Origin: a virus
DNA: 35,246 bases
Strand: one strand, 5' to 3'
UHGV virus genome: UHGV-0095853
Shown: piece after piece, positions 9,445 through 34,013 of the stretch
Layout: every line of letters starts with the position of its first letter
How positions within the stretch are numbered: the stretch's first letter is position 1
The notes under the pieces: model-generated
Databases searched by the model: none
What the model was told of the DNA's origin: nothing
What the model saw: only the letters and a program-made list of their open reading frames with translations
Made by a program: the position numbers and the translations under genes

Positions 9445-10068
9445 ATGAAGGATGGTGTAGTGAAGTTAAGGGTTTTAGGGGCCGCGCTCGCGGCTATGTT
9501 GGGATGCGTATCTGCTAATACTGCCAATGCAACTGCGTTACCTGCACAATTCAGGGCAGGGCAGCAGGTTATGAATAACGCTGGTGGGGATCATTCACAA
9601 GCGGCCATTATGGACTTTTGCAAGAGGGAGGGCATTCCATTACGGCCTGTTGGAACTCAGTTTATTGGTAAAACTGACTTTTGCGTTTTTGCATATACAG
9701 CATATCTGACGGACAAAGCTATAACAAAAACAGGTTATTCAACCAAAGATACTCTTTCCAGATTAAGTCAGGGATGGCAGCAATTCGAAGTGTATCGCCA
9801 GCAAGGATTAGGTGAGTTATTGCAACCACTTTTTATGCTTGCGTTGGTGCCAGAGGGGCAGCAATTTTTGGTTAAAAAGGGAATGCTTCGCCAAAGTGAT
9901 ATTGCCGGGTTCGATAGCATGATGGCTTATGAGCGCAAACTAACCGAGCAGCGAAATAAAAAACCATCTGCTTCATGTGTGCAAAGTAAAACAGCAGAAT
10001 ACAGTGCAGTAGCCGGGCCTTTAGCCAAACAAATGGCAGAGCAATGGTGTAAAAAATACGGGCAATAA
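9445..10068 (+). CDS. Exported protein of unknown function
   Basis: N-terminal signal-peptide-like segment (LRVLGAALAAMLGCVSANTANA). Confidence 0.6.
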   Translation: MKDGVVKLRVLGAALAAMLGCVSANTANATALPAQFRAGQQVMNNAGGDHSQAAIMDFCKREGIPLRPVGTQFIGKTDFCVFAYTAYLTDKAITKTGYSTKDTLSRLSQGWQQFEVYRQQGLGELLQPLFMLALVPEGQQFLVKKGMLRQSDIAGFDSMMAYERKLTEQRNKKPSASCVQSKTAEYSAVAGPLAKQMAEQWCKKYGQ

Positions 10069-25139: not shown

Positions 25140-25802
25140 TCACTCCACAACAAACCAGTCACAGGCCAGCAGGTCGCCAACTGAAGGCACCCACGGAACA
25201 ACTACACCTTGTGCATTTTTTAAGGCGAAATAAGCACCATACGGAACGAGGTCGCCGGGGAAATATCCCTTAATGGCTTCCATTCGTGCCGGGTACTGTC
25301 CTTCAGGAACCAGCCAGCAGAATTGGTTTTCGCCGTTCCACCCGCGTCGGGCAACTTTCTTGCCATCCTTCAGCCACATCAGCGCGTCAGAAAAGTCGGC
25401 TGCTTCAAGGTCGATTTCTTCTTGTAGAGTAGCGATACCGCCAGCAGAAATAGTTACGTCCCTGGCTGTAATGAATGTCACCCCATTGTGACCTTCAATG
25501 CTGAGCGATACCCCATTTTCGGAGGCGTCGTTAACCCGGCTATAGCATTTTTCAAATGCTTTCTCTGGCACATAGACCAGATAACCATTTTCAGCAGTGA
25601 CGAGATATCCTCCTATTTGCGGTCGGAACTTTTCCAAGAACACACCATCAACACGAAGCGTCATTCCTTTTGGCTCCACGACTTCGATGCTGCCAAAAAT
25701 GGGCGCATAAGCTTTGCCGACAATAACAATATCTTTGATTTTCGATGCCCGAATGATGCTGTGGCATTTGTATTTGGGGAACACCTGAAAAGTGCTGGCC
25801 AT
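25140..25802 (-). CDS. Protein with C-terminal DUF2829-like (Tad2-like) domain and an unknown N-terminal domain
   Basis: C-terminus ALMWLKDGKKVARRGWNG ... VVPWVPSVGDLLACDW matches the DUF2829 pattern; GAGGAAGG before ATG. Confidence 0.55.
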   Translation of the reverse strand: MASTFQVFPKYKCHSIIRASKIKDIVIVGKAYAPIFGSIEVVEPKGMTLRVDGVFLEKFRPQIGGYLVTAENGYLVYVPEKAFEKCYSRVNDASENGVSLSIEGHNGVTFITARDVTISAGGIATLQEEIDLEAADFSDALMWLKDGKKVARRGWNGENQFCWLVPEGQYPARMEAIKGYFPGDLVPYGAYFALKNAQGVVVPWVPSVGDLLACDWFVVE

Positions 25803-27198: not shown

Positions 27199-28227
27199 TT
27201 ACGAATCCATCAGGCGGCTATTAGCCCCCACAGACACGCCGCCACGGCGAAGATACCGCATAAGTGTTTCCGGTTTCTTCCAGGTTCCTTCCTGCATGAT
27301 CTCCACCATAGACACCTGCTTTTCAGCCATATCGATAGCGGCCCCGACACGAGCACTATGCCCGGTCCACGTCCGGTATCTCCCTTTGTTTGGCGTGGCA
27401 TCTCTTTTATTCAGCAACACCCAGGCGTCGCTGAATATTTTCTCCATTGCAGGTGCAGTAAGGGGAGTTGTCGTAATCCTGGCCTTATTGCTACGGTGTA
27501 TCGGCGGGAACAGCACCGCGTCAGGATGTTCACGAAGCCCGGAAACATCCAGCCAGTCATTCAGCACTGCGGTAGTGCGACGGGAAAGCACCTTATCAAG
27601 CCCGGCGGCGGTCGTTATTGTCTTCGTGTGTGAAATATGTAGCGTGACAGTGTCACCTGTTTGGTCCAGATCTCCTACACGAATACGCGAGATTTCAGAC
27701 ATTCGCATCAGCGTATTGTATGCAACGAAGAGGAAAGCCCGGTTACGCAGGTCCACCAGCCGTTCTGACCTGGACAACAGGACGTCGAGCAGTTTCAGAT
27801 CGTCCCACCGCAGCGGTATAGCCTGGCCTGTTCGTTCGCCTTTTTCCGTTGCCGCTTCGCGCCGAATGCGCCGCATAGCCAGAGAAATACTTTTATCATC
27901 CGAAAGTGGCGGAAGGCCACAATGCGAAAGCAGCATGTTAAGCATGGCGTAGTGCTTATCAATGGTGGTCGAAGCCAGATCAGCATCATGCAGCTGAAGA
28001 AAATACTCGCGGGCCATCTCTGGTGAGATCGGGAACCAGGCGAGCTGGCGAGCGTGGCACCATCGCGCCCAGGAGTGAAACACTAACCGGAGATCGCGCA
28101 AAGTATTCGGCGCGTAAGCCCCCTGGTCATTCATGAACCGCATAAAGTTTTCTGCGGCCTCCTGGTACTCTTTGCCAATGTTGCGCAGAAAACCACCGGA
28201 GCTGCCAGAGATAATTAATTCACTCAT
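27199..28227 (-). CDS. dre: Cre/Dre-family tyrosine site-specific recombinase
   Basis: Collinear with P1 Cre (about 40 percent identity by eye); catalytic R (YNTLMRMSEISRIRV), H-x-x-R (GHSARVG), W and Y (TWKKPETLMRY) conserved; adjacent rox-like site. Confidence 0.85.
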   Translation of the reverse strand: MSELIISGSSGGFLRNIGKEYQEAAENFMRFMNDQGAYAPNTLRDLRLVFHSWARWCHARQLAWFPISPEMAREYFLQLHDADLASTTIDKHYAMLNMLLSHCGLPPLSDDKSISLAMRRIRREAATEKGERTGQAIPLRWDDLKLLDVLLSRSERLVDLRNRAFLFVAYNTLMRMSEISRIRVGDLDQTGDTVTLHISHTKTITTAAGLDKVLSRRTTAVLNDWLDVSGLREHPDAVLFPPIHRSNKARITTTPLTAPAMEKIFSDAWVLLNKRDATPNKGRYRTWTGHSARVGAAIDMAEKQVSMVEIMQEGTWKKPETLMRYLRRGGVSVGANSRLMDS

Positions 28228-28379: not shown

Positions 28380-28411
28380 TAACTTTAAATAATACTAATT
28401 ATCTAAAGTTA
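28380..28411. other. rox/lox-like recombination site: 14-bp inverted repeats around a 4-bp spacer
   Basis: TAACTTTAAATAAT-ACTA-ATTATCTAAAGTTA; arms differ at one position; about 150 bp upstream of the recombinase start; resembles published rox as recalled and shares the TAACTT core of loxP arms. Confidence 0.6.
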
Positions 28412-28612: not shown

Positions 28613-29650
28613 ATGAGTAAGAAGTCGATCGAGAAAGAGTACAAACGGTTCCTGCAAACCGCTGAACGGTGGAAAGAGCTGGTGGTCGCAAACTCTGTTT
28701 TCCATGATACCAGTTATGCCGGCGAGGAATTCCGCCATGTTGCACTAACACATGATCAGAATGTGCTAGAAGAAGCTGAAAAGTGCCTCACAGAATGGAA
28801 AGCCTTTGTTGACTTGTGCCGTAACGCTGACGGCAAAGCGTCTAACATTGTTGAGTCTGTATATTCTCCGATCCCATTCATTATCGAGGACACAAATCAA
28901 AGCACGCATATTGTTGTGCAAAGCGCGACCACCACCCGCTCATTTACGCGCGAAAATCTGCTCAAAAAATATGATGCAATTATAAAGAAAAGCCTGAAAA
29001 ACAAGATATTTTCGCAGATTGTTGGTGCGCTTGAAGAAGAGCGCCGTTTTTTCGCATCAGAACCTGAAGGGGAAGTTTACCGGGCGCGCAAAGATGGATA
29101 CACAGATGTAGTGCTTACAACAAACATTGAAGGCAGCAATGCTCTGTCACGATTCAGGGTAGGCGCACACGGAGCCTTAGTGTTCGCAAAACTTCCTAAC
29201 ACCACAGTGCCCGTTGTTAATAATGTCGGCGAACGTCGCAGCATTACTATTTATTCTGGGGTTGAGTCGATACCTTGCGGCCTGCTTGGTGACTTTAGTC
29301 TCTATCGCGTTCGCGATCTGGAGAAACACCAACCAAGCTATGTTGCGAAGTCATACATCTTGCGAAACATCGACATCCGCAATGAGAGCTTAAAGAACAA
29401 ATCAGCCAAAATGCTTGAGGAAGCCGATCCGGCTATTCGCCATATCATTGAGCGTAAAATACAGACAGCACGCGAAGCGATGGCGCGACTGAATAAAATG
29501 GATCTGGAGTTGTTAGACGTAATGATGACATCCGGAGATGACCTGACAGGCATAAAACTGACAGACGCGCGGAAAAGATACGGTAAAACCATAGAAGAAC
29601 GTTACGGGTTCACTTTCTCCCAAACACAGCACGCCGCTAAACTCTGGTAA
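28613..29650 (+). CDS. Hypothetical protein (345 aa) at the c1-equivalent position; positional candidate for the immunity repressor
   Basis: Convergent with pacB and divergent from the recombinase, as c1 is in P1; operator-like site directly upstream; no sequence-level confirmation. Confidence 0.5.
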   Translation: MSKKSIEKEYKRFLQTAERWKELVVANSVFHDTSYAGEEFRHVALTHDQNVLEEAEKCLTEWKAFVDLCRNADGKASNIVESVYSPIPFIIEDTNQSTHIVVQSATTTRSFTRENLLKKYDAIIKKSLKNKIFSQIVGALEEERRFFASEPEGEVYRARKDGYTDVVLTTNIEGSNALSRFRVGAHGALVFAKLPNTTVPVVNNVGERRSITIYSGVESIPCGLLGDFSLYRVRDLEKHQPSYVAKSYILRNIDIRNESLKNKSAKMLEEADPAIRHIIERKIQTAREAMARLNKMDLELLDVMMTSGDDLTGIKLTDARKRYGKTIEERYGFTFSQTQHAAKLW

Positions 29651-29654
29651 TCAC

Positions 29655-29683
29655 AAGCCCCGCATTGCCGGGGCTTTATATAT
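29655..29683 (+). terminator. Terminator-like hairpin after gene 28613..29650
   Basis: Stem aagccccg / cggggctt with loop cattgc, then TATATAT. Confidence 0.45.
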
Positions 29684-31184
29684 CCAGATCTGGCATTTCC
29701 ACATCTGCAAGAACCTGATCGCGGAAGGTAGCCATTTCAGCGCCGATATCTTCATTAGCAGGAACATAGTCCACCAGCATTGTAAAGCAGTAGGTATCCC
29801 ATCGGTCAGGTGATTTGATGTTCAGCTTTTGCCGCATGTGCTCCTTGCGCATCATCGCCATCTTCCCTTCTTCATTAAGTAAAAAGGGGATTTTTGACGC
29901 TTGCTCTGCCGTTTTAGGGTCACTGTCTATTCGCATACGACCTGACTTTATGGCATCACGAGCCATAATATTTGCGTAGGCACGCTGGTTAACAAAACGC
30001 TCCTTGTCTTTGTTCGAAAACATGGGTTTCCCCCACCGAATCCGTACCGGATTAGCCCCACGGCGCACCAGCTGCGCACAGGTATCTGAACCAAAACCGT
30101 CTGCGTCAACCGCGATTGTAATATTCGGGTATTTATCCGGCGTGCATTCGTTGTATATAAAGTCAGCAAAAGCCAGCGGGTCCATAGTCCCTGGCATTTC
30201 CATTACCTTAAAGTTAACAACACGCCGCTTTTCCCGGTGACCAGACACTTTACAGATATTAAGAACTGACTTGTCTCGCCCGTTACCAACGTCAGCAGTA
30301 GCCACCCATCCCCAGTTTTTCTCCAACAACACCTTGCGCCGCGCAGCGCGATCGCATTCATCACGACCAAGCAAATAGCCGTTAATCTCCCGAGGAAACT
30401 GACCAAGAACCTTGACCATGTACTCAATAGAATCGCGCCCGCCATATTCCAGGAGTTTCTGCCTGATGAATTGTGGTGTGACGAACGGTGATTCTTCTGA
30501 GTTAAGAACAATTGCTGTCCAGATCCCTTTCGGGTTGTCTGGGGTTTTAGCTTGAGAATGGTGCGAATCGTAGAAATAACCACTTGGCCTTGTTGGCTGG
30601 GATAGCATCAACATTCGGTTATCTTCTTCAGTCAGAGCGCCAGTCATTACGCCGATCGCTTTATCAGATATACCTGATGCTTCATCCAGAATTAGAAGCA
30701 AATGTGCCGCGTGCTCCCCCGCCAGAGCTTCTTCGTTACCGAGTCGATAGCCTTTGCAGAGAACTTCCCAGATCCCCTTTCGAGAGCGTTCATAAAACAT
30801 GGTGTCAGACAGGACAAAATAGGTCTGTAACCACCCATGACGCTTAACGGCATTCGCCCAATACTGTTTAACGTATTTGAATACACCTGTCTTAACCTGA
30901 CCTATTTTGTTAGCAACAATGATGACACGGGCATCGGGGAACAGAATCAAATAAATCAGCAACAACATAGCCGTTAGCGACGATTTCCCTGTACCGTGAC
31001 CAGAGGTAACAGTGGTTCTGCTCCCTTTTTGCTGTACGGACTGGATAATCTCCTGCTGCTGGTGGGAGGGAAACATCCCGAATATATCAACAACAGCCTG
31101 GGTAAAGTTGTAGCGGTATTTGATTACCATATCGCGCCAGCGTGGATCGCTGGTGACGCATTTAATCTTGCGCCCACCAGCCAT
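29676..31184 (-). CDS. pacB: Terminase large subunit (PacB-like)
   Basis: Walker A TSGHGTGKSS, Walker B LLLILDEA; 502 aa; directly downstream of the small-subunit gene with 1-nt overlap. Confidence 0.8.
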   Translation of the reverse strand: MAGGRKIKCVTSDPRWRDMVIKYRYNFTQAVVDIFGMFPSHQQQEIIQSVQQKGSRTTVTSGHGTGKSSLTAMLLLIYLILFPDARVIIVANKIGQVKTGVFKYVKQYWANAVKRHGWLQTYFVLSDTMFYERSRKGIWEVLCKGYRLGNEEALAGEHAAHLLLILDEASGISDKAIGVMTGALTEEDNRMLMLSQPTRPSGYFYDSHHSQAKTPDNPKGIWTAIVLNSEESPFVTPQFIRQKLLEYGGRDSIEYMVKVLGQFPREINGYLLGRDECDRAARRKVLLEKNWGWVATADVGNGRDKSVLNICKVSGHREKRRVVNFKVMEMPGTMDPLAFADFIYNECTPDKYPNITIAVDADGFGSDTCAQLVRRGANPVRIRWGKPMFSNKDKERFVNQRAYANIMARDAIKSGRMRIDSDPKTAEQASKIPFLLNEEGKMAMMRKEHMRQKLNIKSPDRWDTYCFTMLVDYVPANEDIGAEMATFRDQVLADVEMPDLDI

Positions 31185-32548
31185 TAGTCATCCTCCGGCG
31201 GTTCTATCGCAATATCATCATCTCCGGCGTCATACCCTGCATCTGATGCATCATAATCACCGTAAATTTCAGCCGTTGCCGAAGGGTCAATGTCCAACTC
31301 TTCATCGTTGGCCTCGAATTCCCCAGCCTTACGCTCGCCATTGTGGTCGTAATCTCCGCACCCCAGATCTTCAACAATGGTTGCCACATCCGCCCGGCGC
31401 TCTGCCAGCCATTGCGGATGGTTAGCCTGAAGCGATGCAAACTCCTTCGCTTCTTTGTCCAGCTGTTCATCATCAACATCATTGATGTCAGAAACTGGAG
31501 GTTCGAGAAGAGTGATAGCTTTCGCCGCGCGCGCCGCGAGGATAGCCGGGACACTGACACCCTGACGCTCGATGTATTCAGCAACACCGATATCGTCCAG
31601 CTCCTCGCGCTCACGCATACGTATAGCGGCGGCGATAACTCTGGCTGCGCGTGCGTCAGCGCCAATGCGATATTCAATCTCTTTGCCACGCTGTTCGGCC
31701 TGTAGGCGTGCTAATTCGAGTTTTTCTCTGGCCTCGGCCTCTCTGAATGCTTGCTGGCGAGCACCCTGACGAAGTTTTTCATCACCCTGTCGCAGCTTTT
31801 GTTCGGACTGATATATCGCTGCCAACCTACTGATAAAATCGTTCATGTAGTAGGCCGCGTCACTGATTAGACCGAGAAGTCGCTGCCCAGGGTGCATTCC
31901 TTCTGGCTGTTCATCACCCAGGGCGTCTATCTCCGCCTGTAGGCGTTCGGCCTCCTGATCAACAATGCTTTGGTACTGAAGTGCGCGTTCTTGCGCCATT
32001 TGAATTGCTAACCGCAGGTGCTCTTCTGCGCCGTTCTTCATCATGTCGCGAGCCACACTCGTAGTGGGCAACGTGGCACGCTGCACAGCACCGCCAGGGA
32101 TCATTGCTGAAGATCCCTCGATTTTTGAGGCGCATTTATCTTCGGTGGGGATCATTTTCGCCATTTTTTCGCGCAATGATCTCCTGACAGATTCTTTTAT
32201 CTCATTGTTATTATTGTCGTTATTTTTATGATCCGAAGTTTTCTTTCTCGGCATGCTCCGGAAAGAACTTCCGCTCTGTGAATTGTCAGTTTCTGTAAAT
32301 TTTGTTGTTTCTGTACCCTCTTCTGGCCTTTTTTTTGCTCTTCCTGCCCGTTTTTTTTCAGGTGATTTGGTGCTTTTTTTTGTAGTCTTCACCTGCGACC
32401 GCACCTCATTTTTTTTCATATTGAGATGCTTTCTGGCGGTATTGAAGCTAAGGTCGTGTTGCTCGCAGTATTCCTTTACGGTGATCCCTTTTTCTTCACG
32501 CAACGCTATAAATTTGGCGCGGTGCTCTTCCCAATTAACAAGGCTCAT
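31184..32548 (-). CDS. pacA: Terminase small subunit (PacA-like)
   Basis: N-terminal HTH-like segment (ITVKEYCEQHDLSFNTARKHL); position upstream of pacB; contains GATC-hexamer cluster; long acidic C-terminus. Confidence 0.7.
   Translation of the reverse strand: MSLVNWEEHRAKFIALREEKGITVKEYCEQHDLSFNTARKHLNMKKNEVRSQVKTTKKSTKSPEKKRAGRAKKRPEEGTETTKFTETDNSQSGSSFRSMPRKKTSDHKNNDNNNNEIKESVRRSLREKMAKMIPTEDKCASKIEGSSAMIPGGAVQRATLPTTSVARDMMKNGAEEHLRLAIQMAQERALQYQSIVDQEAERLQAEIDALGDEQPEGMHPGQRLLGLISDAAYYMNDFISRLAAIYQSEQKLRQGDEKLRQGARQQAFREAEAREKLELARLQAEQRGKEIEYRIGADARAARVIAAAIRMREREELDDIGVAEYIERQGVSVPAILAARAAKAITLLEPPVSDINDVDDEQLDKEAKEFASLQANHPQWLAERRADVATIVEDLGCGDYDHNGERKAGEFEANDEELDIDPSATAEIYGDYDASDAGYDAGDDDIAIEPPEDD
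32099..32233. other. Candidate pac (packaging initiation) site: five GATC-containing hexamers within 135 bp inside pacA
   Basis: GATC at 32099, 32112, 32150, 32178, 32230 with AT-rich tracts between; about 0.5 expected by chance. Confidence 0.4.
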
Positions 32549-32937
32549 AAAGCAACACCACGCTTTTTAACTGCGGCATTCCACAGCTTATTAGTCATGT
32601 CCACCAGCTTGCGCTGCTCTTGTCGCGCCAGTTCTGCAGACTTCCGGCTACAGTTTTTAACCAGCAAACTGCCGTATTCAGGGGTGCGCCCGCGCACCTT
32701 GAACTGATATCCGTTCAGGCCATGCAACCAGTATTTCCGTGGGTAAACACGATCATCAAGCTCACAAATAGCTCGGCTTGACCGCACAAAATGCCGAATG
32801 ATGTTGGTTACACTTACGCGTGAAACATGAAGGTGAGGATATTTTTCTTTAGCTAGAGTGGTAATTTCGGTGACTGTCAGATAGCAGTCAGCCCTAATCA
32901 TGATATCCGCAATTTCTGCGCTGCTGATATGCTCCAT
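32545..32937 (-). CDS. lpa: Lpa-like late promoter activator (positional call)
   Basis: 130-aa protein immediately upstream of pacA with ATGA overlap, as lpa is in P1; operator pair upstream; GGGGGA before ATG. Confidence 0.4.
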   Translation of the reverse strand: MEHISSAEIADIMIRADCYLTVTEITTLAKEKYPHLHVSRVSVTNIIRHFVRSSRAICELDDRVYPRKYWLHGLNGYQFKVRGRTPEYGSLLVKNCSRKSAELARQEQRKLVDMTNKLWNAAVKKRGVAL

Positions 32938-33055: not shown

Positions 33056-33438
33056 GATAAGCGAACGACGTGTTTTACCTTAGCGATCCACTTACCACGT
33101 GAGTTATTAATTACGGCCTGCGCCACCTTTAAGCTGACTTCAAAATCAGCCTTACGACCATCAGAATCCACCAGCGTTGCACCGTCTATTTCCGGCAGGC
33201 TTAAATAATCCTGTTCTACCTCTAATGGCATTGACGGCTCTCTGAATGGTGTCAATTGCCGAGCTTTCCAGATAAAGCGAACTCTCAATCCCCTATAAGC
33301 CATTACCATGTAGCCTGTTATCGTGCTCTTATGGCCTGCATCAGTACGCGCAGCATTACACGATACAATCTTACAGGTGACGATATTCCACTCCACATTG
33401 GAGACTTCGTGAATGCTTAATTTTGTTGTCTCGTACAT
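33046..33438 (-). CDS. Hypothetical protein (130 aa)
   Basis: ATG overlapping upstream stop. Confidence 0.5.
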   Translation of the reverse strand: MYETTKLSIHEVSNVEWNIVTCKIVSCNAARTDAGHKSTITGYMVMAYRGLRVRFIWKARQLTPFREPSMPLEVEQDYLSLPEIDGATLVDSDGRKADFEVSLKVAQAVINNSRGKWIAKVKHVVRLSRW

Positions 33439-34013
33439 CAGAATGCCTCCCAGTCAGTTGCGATAATATCCACGCCAGTTGCGAACCAGTCTGTCTGCGC
33501 CTGTAAATCCCCATTCATCATTACCAGGCGAGGCATAACCATCACATCGCACCCTTCCACAATATCGAATGCCTCTTCCGGCAAGAATTCGAAGAGCTTT
33601 TCTTTGCTGCCAATGCTGCCACGGAACATCGATAAATAGCTCCCTTTAGGCCATGATGCCCGGCGGGCATCCAGCCCCTTCATCATCCAGAACATGGCGG
33701 CAGAAAAATTGATGTTCTTTTTGGCGATGAAAACATTATTGGCTTCTGTTTGCTTCAGAAACTTAATTAGCCTTGCCATCGACTCGGATAACGCTACGTA
33801 TGGCTCATGATTGGCTGCGGACACGCTCACACCATGTAATCCAACACTGACTACCGTCATATCGCCGCTTTGAGCGGTTTCAATGTTGACACCTTTGCGA
33901 ACTAACGAGGCATAAAGTTCCTCTCGCTTTTGTGTCCAGCGTTCCCGCTGACCGATGAAGTCACTCAATATGAGATCTGCTTCTGCATACGCGTTATCGT
34001 TCGCCGTTAACAT
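33438..34013 (-). CDS. Hypothetical protein (191 aa), possibly with a divergent DUF2829-like C-terminal region
   Basis: FSAAMFWMMKGLDARRASWPKGSY ... DWFATGVDIIATDW loosely follows the DUF2829 Trp pattern. Confidence 0.45.
   Translation of the reverse strand: MLTANDNAYAEADLILSDFIGQRERWTQKREELYASLVRKGVNIETAQSGDMTVVSVGLHGVSVSAANHEPYVALSESMARLIKFLKQTEANNVFIAKKNINFSAAMFWMMKGLDARRASWPKGSYLSMFRGSIGSKEKLFEFLPEEAFDIVEGCDVMVMPRLVMMNGDLQAQTDWFATGVDIIATDWEAF

Follow-up and report, generated by a model that had tools for sequence, protein, structure and literature searches.

A diverged GATC motif cluster inside pacA is a candidate P1-type packaging initiation site of a D6-like phage-plasmid

Introduction

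Gene 3 of P22 and gene 1 of SPP1 are small-terminase genes in which the packaging initiation (pac) site recognized by their own product is embedded, and both phages package by the headful mechanism, which is also what we propose here for the pacA gene of a D6-like phage-plasmid of E. coli. This element is distantly related to P1, and the stretch of its DNA analysed here spans 35,246 bp (UHGV-0095853; hereafter the window). The small terminases of P22 and SPP1 are unrelated or only distantly related to PacA and, to our knowledge, their pac sites have neither GATC repeats nor a Dam dependence. At oriC, at P1 oriR and among the pap regulatory GATCs, DNA-binding proteins read the methylation state of close-set GATC sites; these clusters lie at origins or promoters, whereas the cluster of the window lies in a terminase gene and each of its GATCs is part of a longer specific motif. 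The P1 pac site and its mechanism were reportedly described by Sternberg and Coulby in 1987 and 1990 and by Skorupski et al. in 1992 and 1994.

P1 pac covers ~161-162 bp inside pacA, where seven TGATCA/G hexamers, in groups of four and three, flank an IHF site and the cuts (PMC10028697; NC_005856). Its cleavage by PacA/PacB is regulated by Dam methylation (PMC10028697). While P1 pac was defined experimentally, the D6-type site is known here from sequence alone. In this work we describe five copies of a GATC-containing motif and a conserved IHF-like element in the pacA gene of the window, and we consider it likely that this cluster forms the core of a P1-type pac site, with a recognition motif that diverged as PacA did.

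Results and discussion

The five GATCs of the cluster are located at positions 32099, 32112, 32150, 32178 and 32230 of the window, corresponding to nucleotides 316-450 of pacA (Table 1). The original prediction of a pac site at this place hinged on an excess of GATC over the surrounding sequence, and this was borne out: the cluster contains 37 GATCs per kb versus 3.2 per kb in the whole window, which is slightly GATC-poor (114 in 35,246 bp, with ~135 expected), it is the densest cluster of the window, and nowhere else in it do at least four GATCs fall within 135 bp. Likewise, at least four GATCs within 135 bp are found only once across the 91 kb of the D6 genome, at the homologous cluster. Under uniform placement, the probability of finding at least five GATCs in 135 bp was P = 0.08 anywhere in the window and P = 0.0036 inside pacA. 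The cluster is real, and its significance on this single sequence is moderate, not overwhelming.

All five sites are copies of one asymmetric 9-mer, rGGGATC(A/T)TT, present in both orientations; following the direction of pacA, their order (M1 to M5) is forward, forward, reverse, forward, reverse. Of the three perfect copies of the 9-mer GGGATCATT in the 35 kb, two are in the cluster. The remaining one, at 9587-9595, is the lone perfect copy of the window outside the pacA cluster and stands alone. A possible outlying copy, M0 (GATC at 32483), was not counted: its conservation is little informative because the coding sequence around it is conserved too, and more distant relatives lack it.

Table 1. 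Coordinates of the candidate pac region, its elements and other features of the window
Feature	Coordinates	Strand	Remarks
Candidate pac region	32097..32235	-	139 bp; M1-M5 and IHF-like element; wholly in codons 105-151 of pacA
M1, CGGATCATA	32227..32235	-	pacA orientation; sole left-arm copy in this lineage
IHF-like conserved element, TAACAATGAGATA	32198..32210	-	between M1 and M2
TGTCAG	32184..32189	-	8 nt after the IHF-like element; speculative cut position
M2, GAGATCATT	32175..32183	-	pacA orientation; GATCA invariant
M3, GGGATCATT	32148..32156	+	inverted with respect to pacA; reads AATGATCCC in the pacA direction
M4, GGGATCTTC	32109..32117	-	pacA orientation; at the same alignment column in 6 of 7 good-quality D6-group sequences
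M5, GGGATCATT	32097..32105	+	inverted with respect to pacA; direct repeat of M3
M0, GGGATCACC	32480..32488	-	possible outlying copy in the HTH-coding part of pacA; membership uncertain
lpa	32545-32937		upstream neighbour of pacA
pacA (PacA / small-terminase-like pacase subunit, 454 aa)	31184..32548	-	ORF; phrog_1711; houses the candidate pac site
pacB (large terminase / pacase B subunit, 502 aa)	29676..31184	-	phrog_2 'terminase large subunit', 2e-40; annotated pacB in D6
c1	28613-29650		between pacB and the rox-like site
rox-like recombination site	28380..28411		~3.7 kb from the GATC cluster, on the pacB/c1 side
dre (Dre recombinase)	27199-28227	-	
Dam-family N6-adenine DNA methyltransferase, 333 aa	114..1115	-	PF02086, 7e-57

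The gene that houses the cluster is, judging by its sequence, a true pacA homologue. The PacA proteins of the window and of P1 both belong to phrog_1711 (4e-177 and 4e-202, respectively) and align over their full length (E = 6e-9), at only 20% amino acid identity. No Pfam or NCBIfam family and no solved relative were found for PacA. An AlphaFold2 model built from an 18-sequence alignment shows an N-terminal three-helix helix-turn-helix (HTH, residues 6-42) and a long helical C-terminal domain; residues 47-158 have a predicted local distance difference test (pLDDT) score below 50 and almost no secondary structure, and are thus predicted to form a disordered linker. The codons that make up the cluster fall within this linker, and no other part of PacA is less conserved. 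Since the linker is predicted to be disordered and is poorly conserved, the protein would impose little constraint here, and the conserved bases are most readily interpreted as DNA elements.

To define this conservation we aligned the pacA gene of the window with those of D6 and six plasmids at 67-84% nucleotide identity, and added five metagenomic or genomic relatives with as little as 34% PacA identity. Plasmid pSa1423, riddled with indels, was left out of the conservation statistics, for which 7 of the 8 sequences were used. The motifs fall in the least conserved part of pacA, where 27% of the columns are invariant among the seven D6-group sequences (67-100% nucleotide identity). Within it, the 10-nt run AAATGATCCC at M3 is invariant in all seven sequences and tied for the longest invariant run in pacA, and the equally invariant 9-nt run AATGATCCC at M5 is the next-longest; background 9-mers of the motif region have a mean of 2.2 invariant positions and none reaches 8. 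The GATC of M1 is retained in 6 of the 7 sequences, and the Enterobacter relative has, in place of M1, two extra copies further upstream.

The same pattern extends to the wider D6 clade. Among 10 of its lineages, 57 of the 83 pacA GATCs lie in nucleotides 150-480 and give the logo rGGGATC(A/T)TT, while the bases that flank the other 26 show no preference. Relatives with PacA identities down to 34% contain 5-8 copies of the motif, and although copy number and positions shift in the distant ones (2-5 copies upstream and 1-4 downstream), they are always clustered in this part of pacA. In 45 loci, the strict 8-mer GGGATCWT is nearly confined to this stretch, and the remaining 49 kb of D6 have 5 matches. 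As a positive control we made an alignment of P1 pacA and five relatives from the P1 clade (~80% identity); the pac hexamers and the annotated IHF site appeared as invariant islands, that is, with the same conservation signature as in the D6 clade. These results support that the GATC elements have been selected at the DNA level across the D6 clade.

The left-out sequence, from the Salmonella plasmid pSa1423-90k (NZ_MK356557.1), has a pacA region that, compared with all its relatives, is full of small indels and is annotated only as short hypothetical ORFs; these indels look like the product of an uncorrected long-read assembly and not like biology.

A different origin of the cluster would be the coding sequence itself: repeated peptides (MIP, GS and DH) in a low-complexity linker could generate GATCs as a by-product, with no function at the DNA level. 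'KMIP' and 'xMIP' do recur in the protein, and the amino acid sequence alone raises the number of GATCs expected in the region to 1.8, compared with the 0.44 predicted from base composition. However, when codons were resampled synonymously with the protein fixed, at least five GATCs in the region were obtained with P = 0.008. Moreover, the same 9-mer is found in both orientations and in three reading frames, its GATCs occupying codon positions 1, 2 and 3, and the Ile codon of both MIP repeats is ATC in every aligned D6-group sequence while ATC accounts for 37% of the Ile codons of these genes. The Met codon that precedes M3 is replaced by a Lys codon in more distant relatives (AAAAGATCC) and the GATC is retained. 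Together with the relocation of the copies in distant relatives, where they stay clustered, and with the poor conservation and predicted disorder of the protein segment, this makes a mere coding by-product hardly credible.

A second conserved island of the PacA linker region lies at 32282-32301 (minus strand), upstream of M1, and reads AATTTACAGAAACTGACAAT, in which TTACA and TGACAA do not vary. Relatives with as little as 42% PacA identity retain this island, whose position in distant relatives is between the left-arm copies of the motif and the IHF-like element; it may be either a DNA site or the peptide K-L/F-T-K-x-D. In addition, the Lys-rich part of the linker is encoded by four runs of eight A (32328-32418, minus strand, codons ~44-74), of which only the first is conserved in relatives. 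These runs are slippage-prone, and several database PacA entries are frameshifted or internally started (P0004, P0005, P0013 and P0022).

Between M1 and M2 we found the element TAACAATGAGATA, which is identical at 10 of 13 positions to the annotated IHF site of P1, AAACAAAGAGTTA, in a different reading frame. Seven of its 13 columns are invariant within a hypervariable stretch. The distance from its AACA to M2 is fixed at 24 nt in nine lineages and the spacing between M2 and M3 is fixed as well, so that the arrangement AACA-N24-GATCW-N23-GATCC is identical in these lineages, with PacA identities down to 42%, while the sequence in between varies.

Considered together, these features resemble P1 pac in several respects. 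The cluster lies inside the homologous gene, in the linker-coding region that follows the HTH (the P1 hexamers occupy nucleotides 195-351 of pacA); it consists of multiple GATC-containing repeats spread across about 140-160 bp; a conserved IHF-like element, a possible counterpart of the IHF site of P1, lies between what are plausibly two groups of repeats; and in both clades the repeats are invariant islands in a variable stretch. The phage encodes a Dam-family methylase in both cases, and the gene order lpa-pacA-pacB-c1-rox-dre agrees with that of P1, in which the recombination site lox is ~4.0 kb from the pac cuts. The differences are also clear. The D6-type repeat is asymmetric and oriented, in contrast to the palindromic TGATCA/G; there are five copies (1 + 4) instead of seven (4 + 3), with 2-5 + 1-4 in relatives, and their spacing is wider; pacA is translationally coupled to lpa, whereas P1 has an lpa-pacA intergenic region with the late promoter LPpac; and the methylase is a stand-alone Dam and not the Dmt fusion of P1.

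Alternatively, the cluster could be what is left of an ancestral P1-like pac site that has fallen out of use, and D6-type phages might use another site or start packaging without sequence specificity. The left arm is down to one copy in the window, compared with 2-5 in distant relatives. Nonetheless, an unused relic would decay, whereas M3 and M5 are among the best-conserved DNA of pacA and the spacing described above has stayed fixed across lineages with PacA identities as low as 42%. We therefore regard a remnant as very unlikely.

If the cluster is a pac site, its function can be outlined by analogy with P1, from which we infer cleavage, protein binding, cut position, packaging direction and methylation dependence. 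The N-terminal HTH of PacA, acting with PacB, would bind the copies of the motif, either IHF or HU would serve as the bending protein of the host that folds the ~140-bp region, and the pacase would cut between M1 and M2-M5. Headful packaging would then run toward pacB, c1 and rox, and rox would fall in the terminal redundancy, where Dre could circularise the incoming DNA. A recombinase site is known to act within terminal redundancy, with which this placement of rox fits.

Cleavage at the candidate pac is probably gated by adenine methylation, as in P1, because GATC is the invariant core of every copy and because the element encodes a Dam-family methylase. Gating by methylation is also the most economical reading since GATC is the only part shared with the P1 hexamer. 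That the element has a Dam of its own had already been proposed in the original prediction, and the analysis of the ORF confirmed a member of the Dam family: besides its Pfam match (Table 1), it scores 250 bits on TIGR00571 'dam' (cut-off 115) and contains a DPPY motif. Among solved proteins it is closest to E. coli Dam (2g1p, 1e-58), and it matches DpnM at 1e-44. On the E. coli Dam equivalog model NF008152 it reaches 240 bits, below the cut-off of 441, so by sequence it is a member of the Dam family and not an orthologue of the host Dam. The gene adjoins rdgC; the methylase gene of D6, which is annotated as resembling the C-terminal half of P1 dmt, has the same neighbour.

The GATC motifs could also serve another purpose. 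They could be a Dam/SeqA-sensitive or PacA-binding regulatory element, acting for example in the autoregulation or timing of pacA-pacB expression or in the sequestration of hemimethylated DNA, with the true cut elsewhere. Conservation shows selection at the DNA level and not its purpose, GATC clusters serve regulation and replication elsewhere (e.g., P1 oriR and the cre promoters), and a weak antisense promoter-like match, TTGTTA-16-TATGAT at 32205-32232, overlaps the GATC of M1. On the other hand, promoter-like matches occur at the level expected by chance (2 found, 1.5 expected) and the -10 hexamer of this one is altered in D6. SeqA prefers pairs of GATCs that face the same side of the helix, and the distances between the GATCs here (13, 28 and 38 bp) do not correspond to an integral number of helical turns. 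Furthermore, the cluster and the mapped P1 pac occupy homologous positions, the IHF-like element being at the corresponding place, and the D6 genome contains no other candidate GATC cluster. For these reasons we consider a purely regulatory role with a cut elsewhere unlikely.

Two putative regulatory features, the antisense promoter over M1 and a plus-strand hairpin followed by a T-run over M3, were rejected since they occur at chance frequency and are not conserved.

Several observations weigh against the assignment of the cluster as a pac site. The original prediction spoke of five GATC hexamers within 135 bp of pacA; the five GATCs (32099-32233) do lie inside the ORF, but none of the five sites reads TGATCA or TGATCG on either strand, so the motif is not that of P1. 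The layout is lopsided, with one copy on one side of the IHF-like element and four on the other, and the GATCs are spaced 52, 28, 38 and 13 bp apart, wider than the 7-14 bp within each group of P1. Of the nine positions specified in the IHF consensus WATCAANNNNTTR, the IHF-like element fits only seven, while P1 and some relatives fit eight; we consequently did not label it a strict IHF site and kept it as 'IHF-like'. Single-sequence statistics are modest, as the window-wide P value shows, and the GATC specificity of the methylase is predicted from homology only (E. coli Dam, DpnM and T4 Dam). Lastly, the GenBank records of D6 annotate rox but no pac site, and full-text literature searches gave nothing on a D6 pac site, although the key D6 papers lie outside the searched text and an earlier mention is possible. 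On the evidence available, the D6-type site would be new as a variant of the P1-type pac. What stands of the proposed pac site is the homology of PacA, the Dam-family methylase gene, the selection at the DNA level and the location in the same linker-coding region as in P1, and what does not is the P1 hexamer and the 4 + 3 layout.

The place of the cut is the part of the proposed pac site that we can suggest only with low confidence. In P1, the sequence TGTCAG lies 7 nt after the IHF site and holds the first pair of annotated pac cuts. The TGTCAG of the window has a similar position (Table 1), which would place the cut at ~32180-32195. The match to the P1 cut site is confined to the window and the D6 lineage, and our confidence is low because TGTCAG is not conserved in other members of the D6 clade, which is a further point against the assignment.

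We rejected the ends of contigs as a proxy for packaged ends. None of the eleven metagenome contigs that contain the region ends in it, and a 23.6-kb isolate contig (IMGVR_UViG_2537562191_000021) begins one base after the GATC of M1 (…GGATC|ATGAAAAT…); this is a single case from an isolate assembly and may be due to chance, although either an assembly break or a packaged end might be located at such a position.

A broader possibility, which we put forward tentatively, is that pac sites across the whole PacA family are Dam-gated, with a conserved GATC core and flanking recognition bases that change together with PacA, giving TGATCA/G in the P1 clade and rGGGATC(A/T)TT in the D6 clade. D6 would then represent a second, orthogonal pair, with oriented half-sites and the rigid arrangement AACA-N24-GATC-N24-GATC, and the property selected anciently would have been the sensing of methylation and not the recognition sequence.

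D6-like phage-plasmids are common in E. coli, Salmonella and Shigella, and P1 pac underlies P1 phagemids, PAC vectors and engineered transduction. If the cluster is a pac site, a defined D6-type pac would allow the starting point of packaging, and with it of transduction, to be predicted for these elements, and its pacase and pac would probably make a pair orthogonal to that of P1 for DNA-delivery tools. It would also offer a natural comparison for how a terminase reads the methylation state, because only the GATC core is common to both clades. Because homology leads one to expect such a site, it would be a modest surprise for a specialist.

Gene neighbourhood and relatives

The pacA gene of the window is 93.6% identical at the nucleotide level to that of phage D6 and 100% identical to that of several E. 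coli plasmids. A relative of pacA is carried by 121 PLSDB plasmids from Escherichia, Salmonella, Shigella and Enterobacter, and a species-wide search of genome contigs with a PacA profile returned two P1-like loci only. The stop codon of lpa overlaps the start codon of pacA (32545-32548), and the stop codon of pacA overlaps the start of pacB (31184), both as ATGA overlaps.

Compared with the rox of D6 (L001, 4909-4940), the rox-like site has the 4-nt central spacer TAGT instead of TGGC and one changed base in an arm. A site with this altered spacer should be incompatible with the canonical rox. The Dre of the window is nevertheless identical to that of D6 at 341 of 342 positions.

Two ORFs of the window, at 25140-25802 and 33438-34013 (both on the minus strand), contain a Tad2-like (Thoeris anti-defence 2) domain, PF11195 (1.6e-22 and 1.5e-9, respectively), and are likely anti-defence genes of the phage-plasmid.

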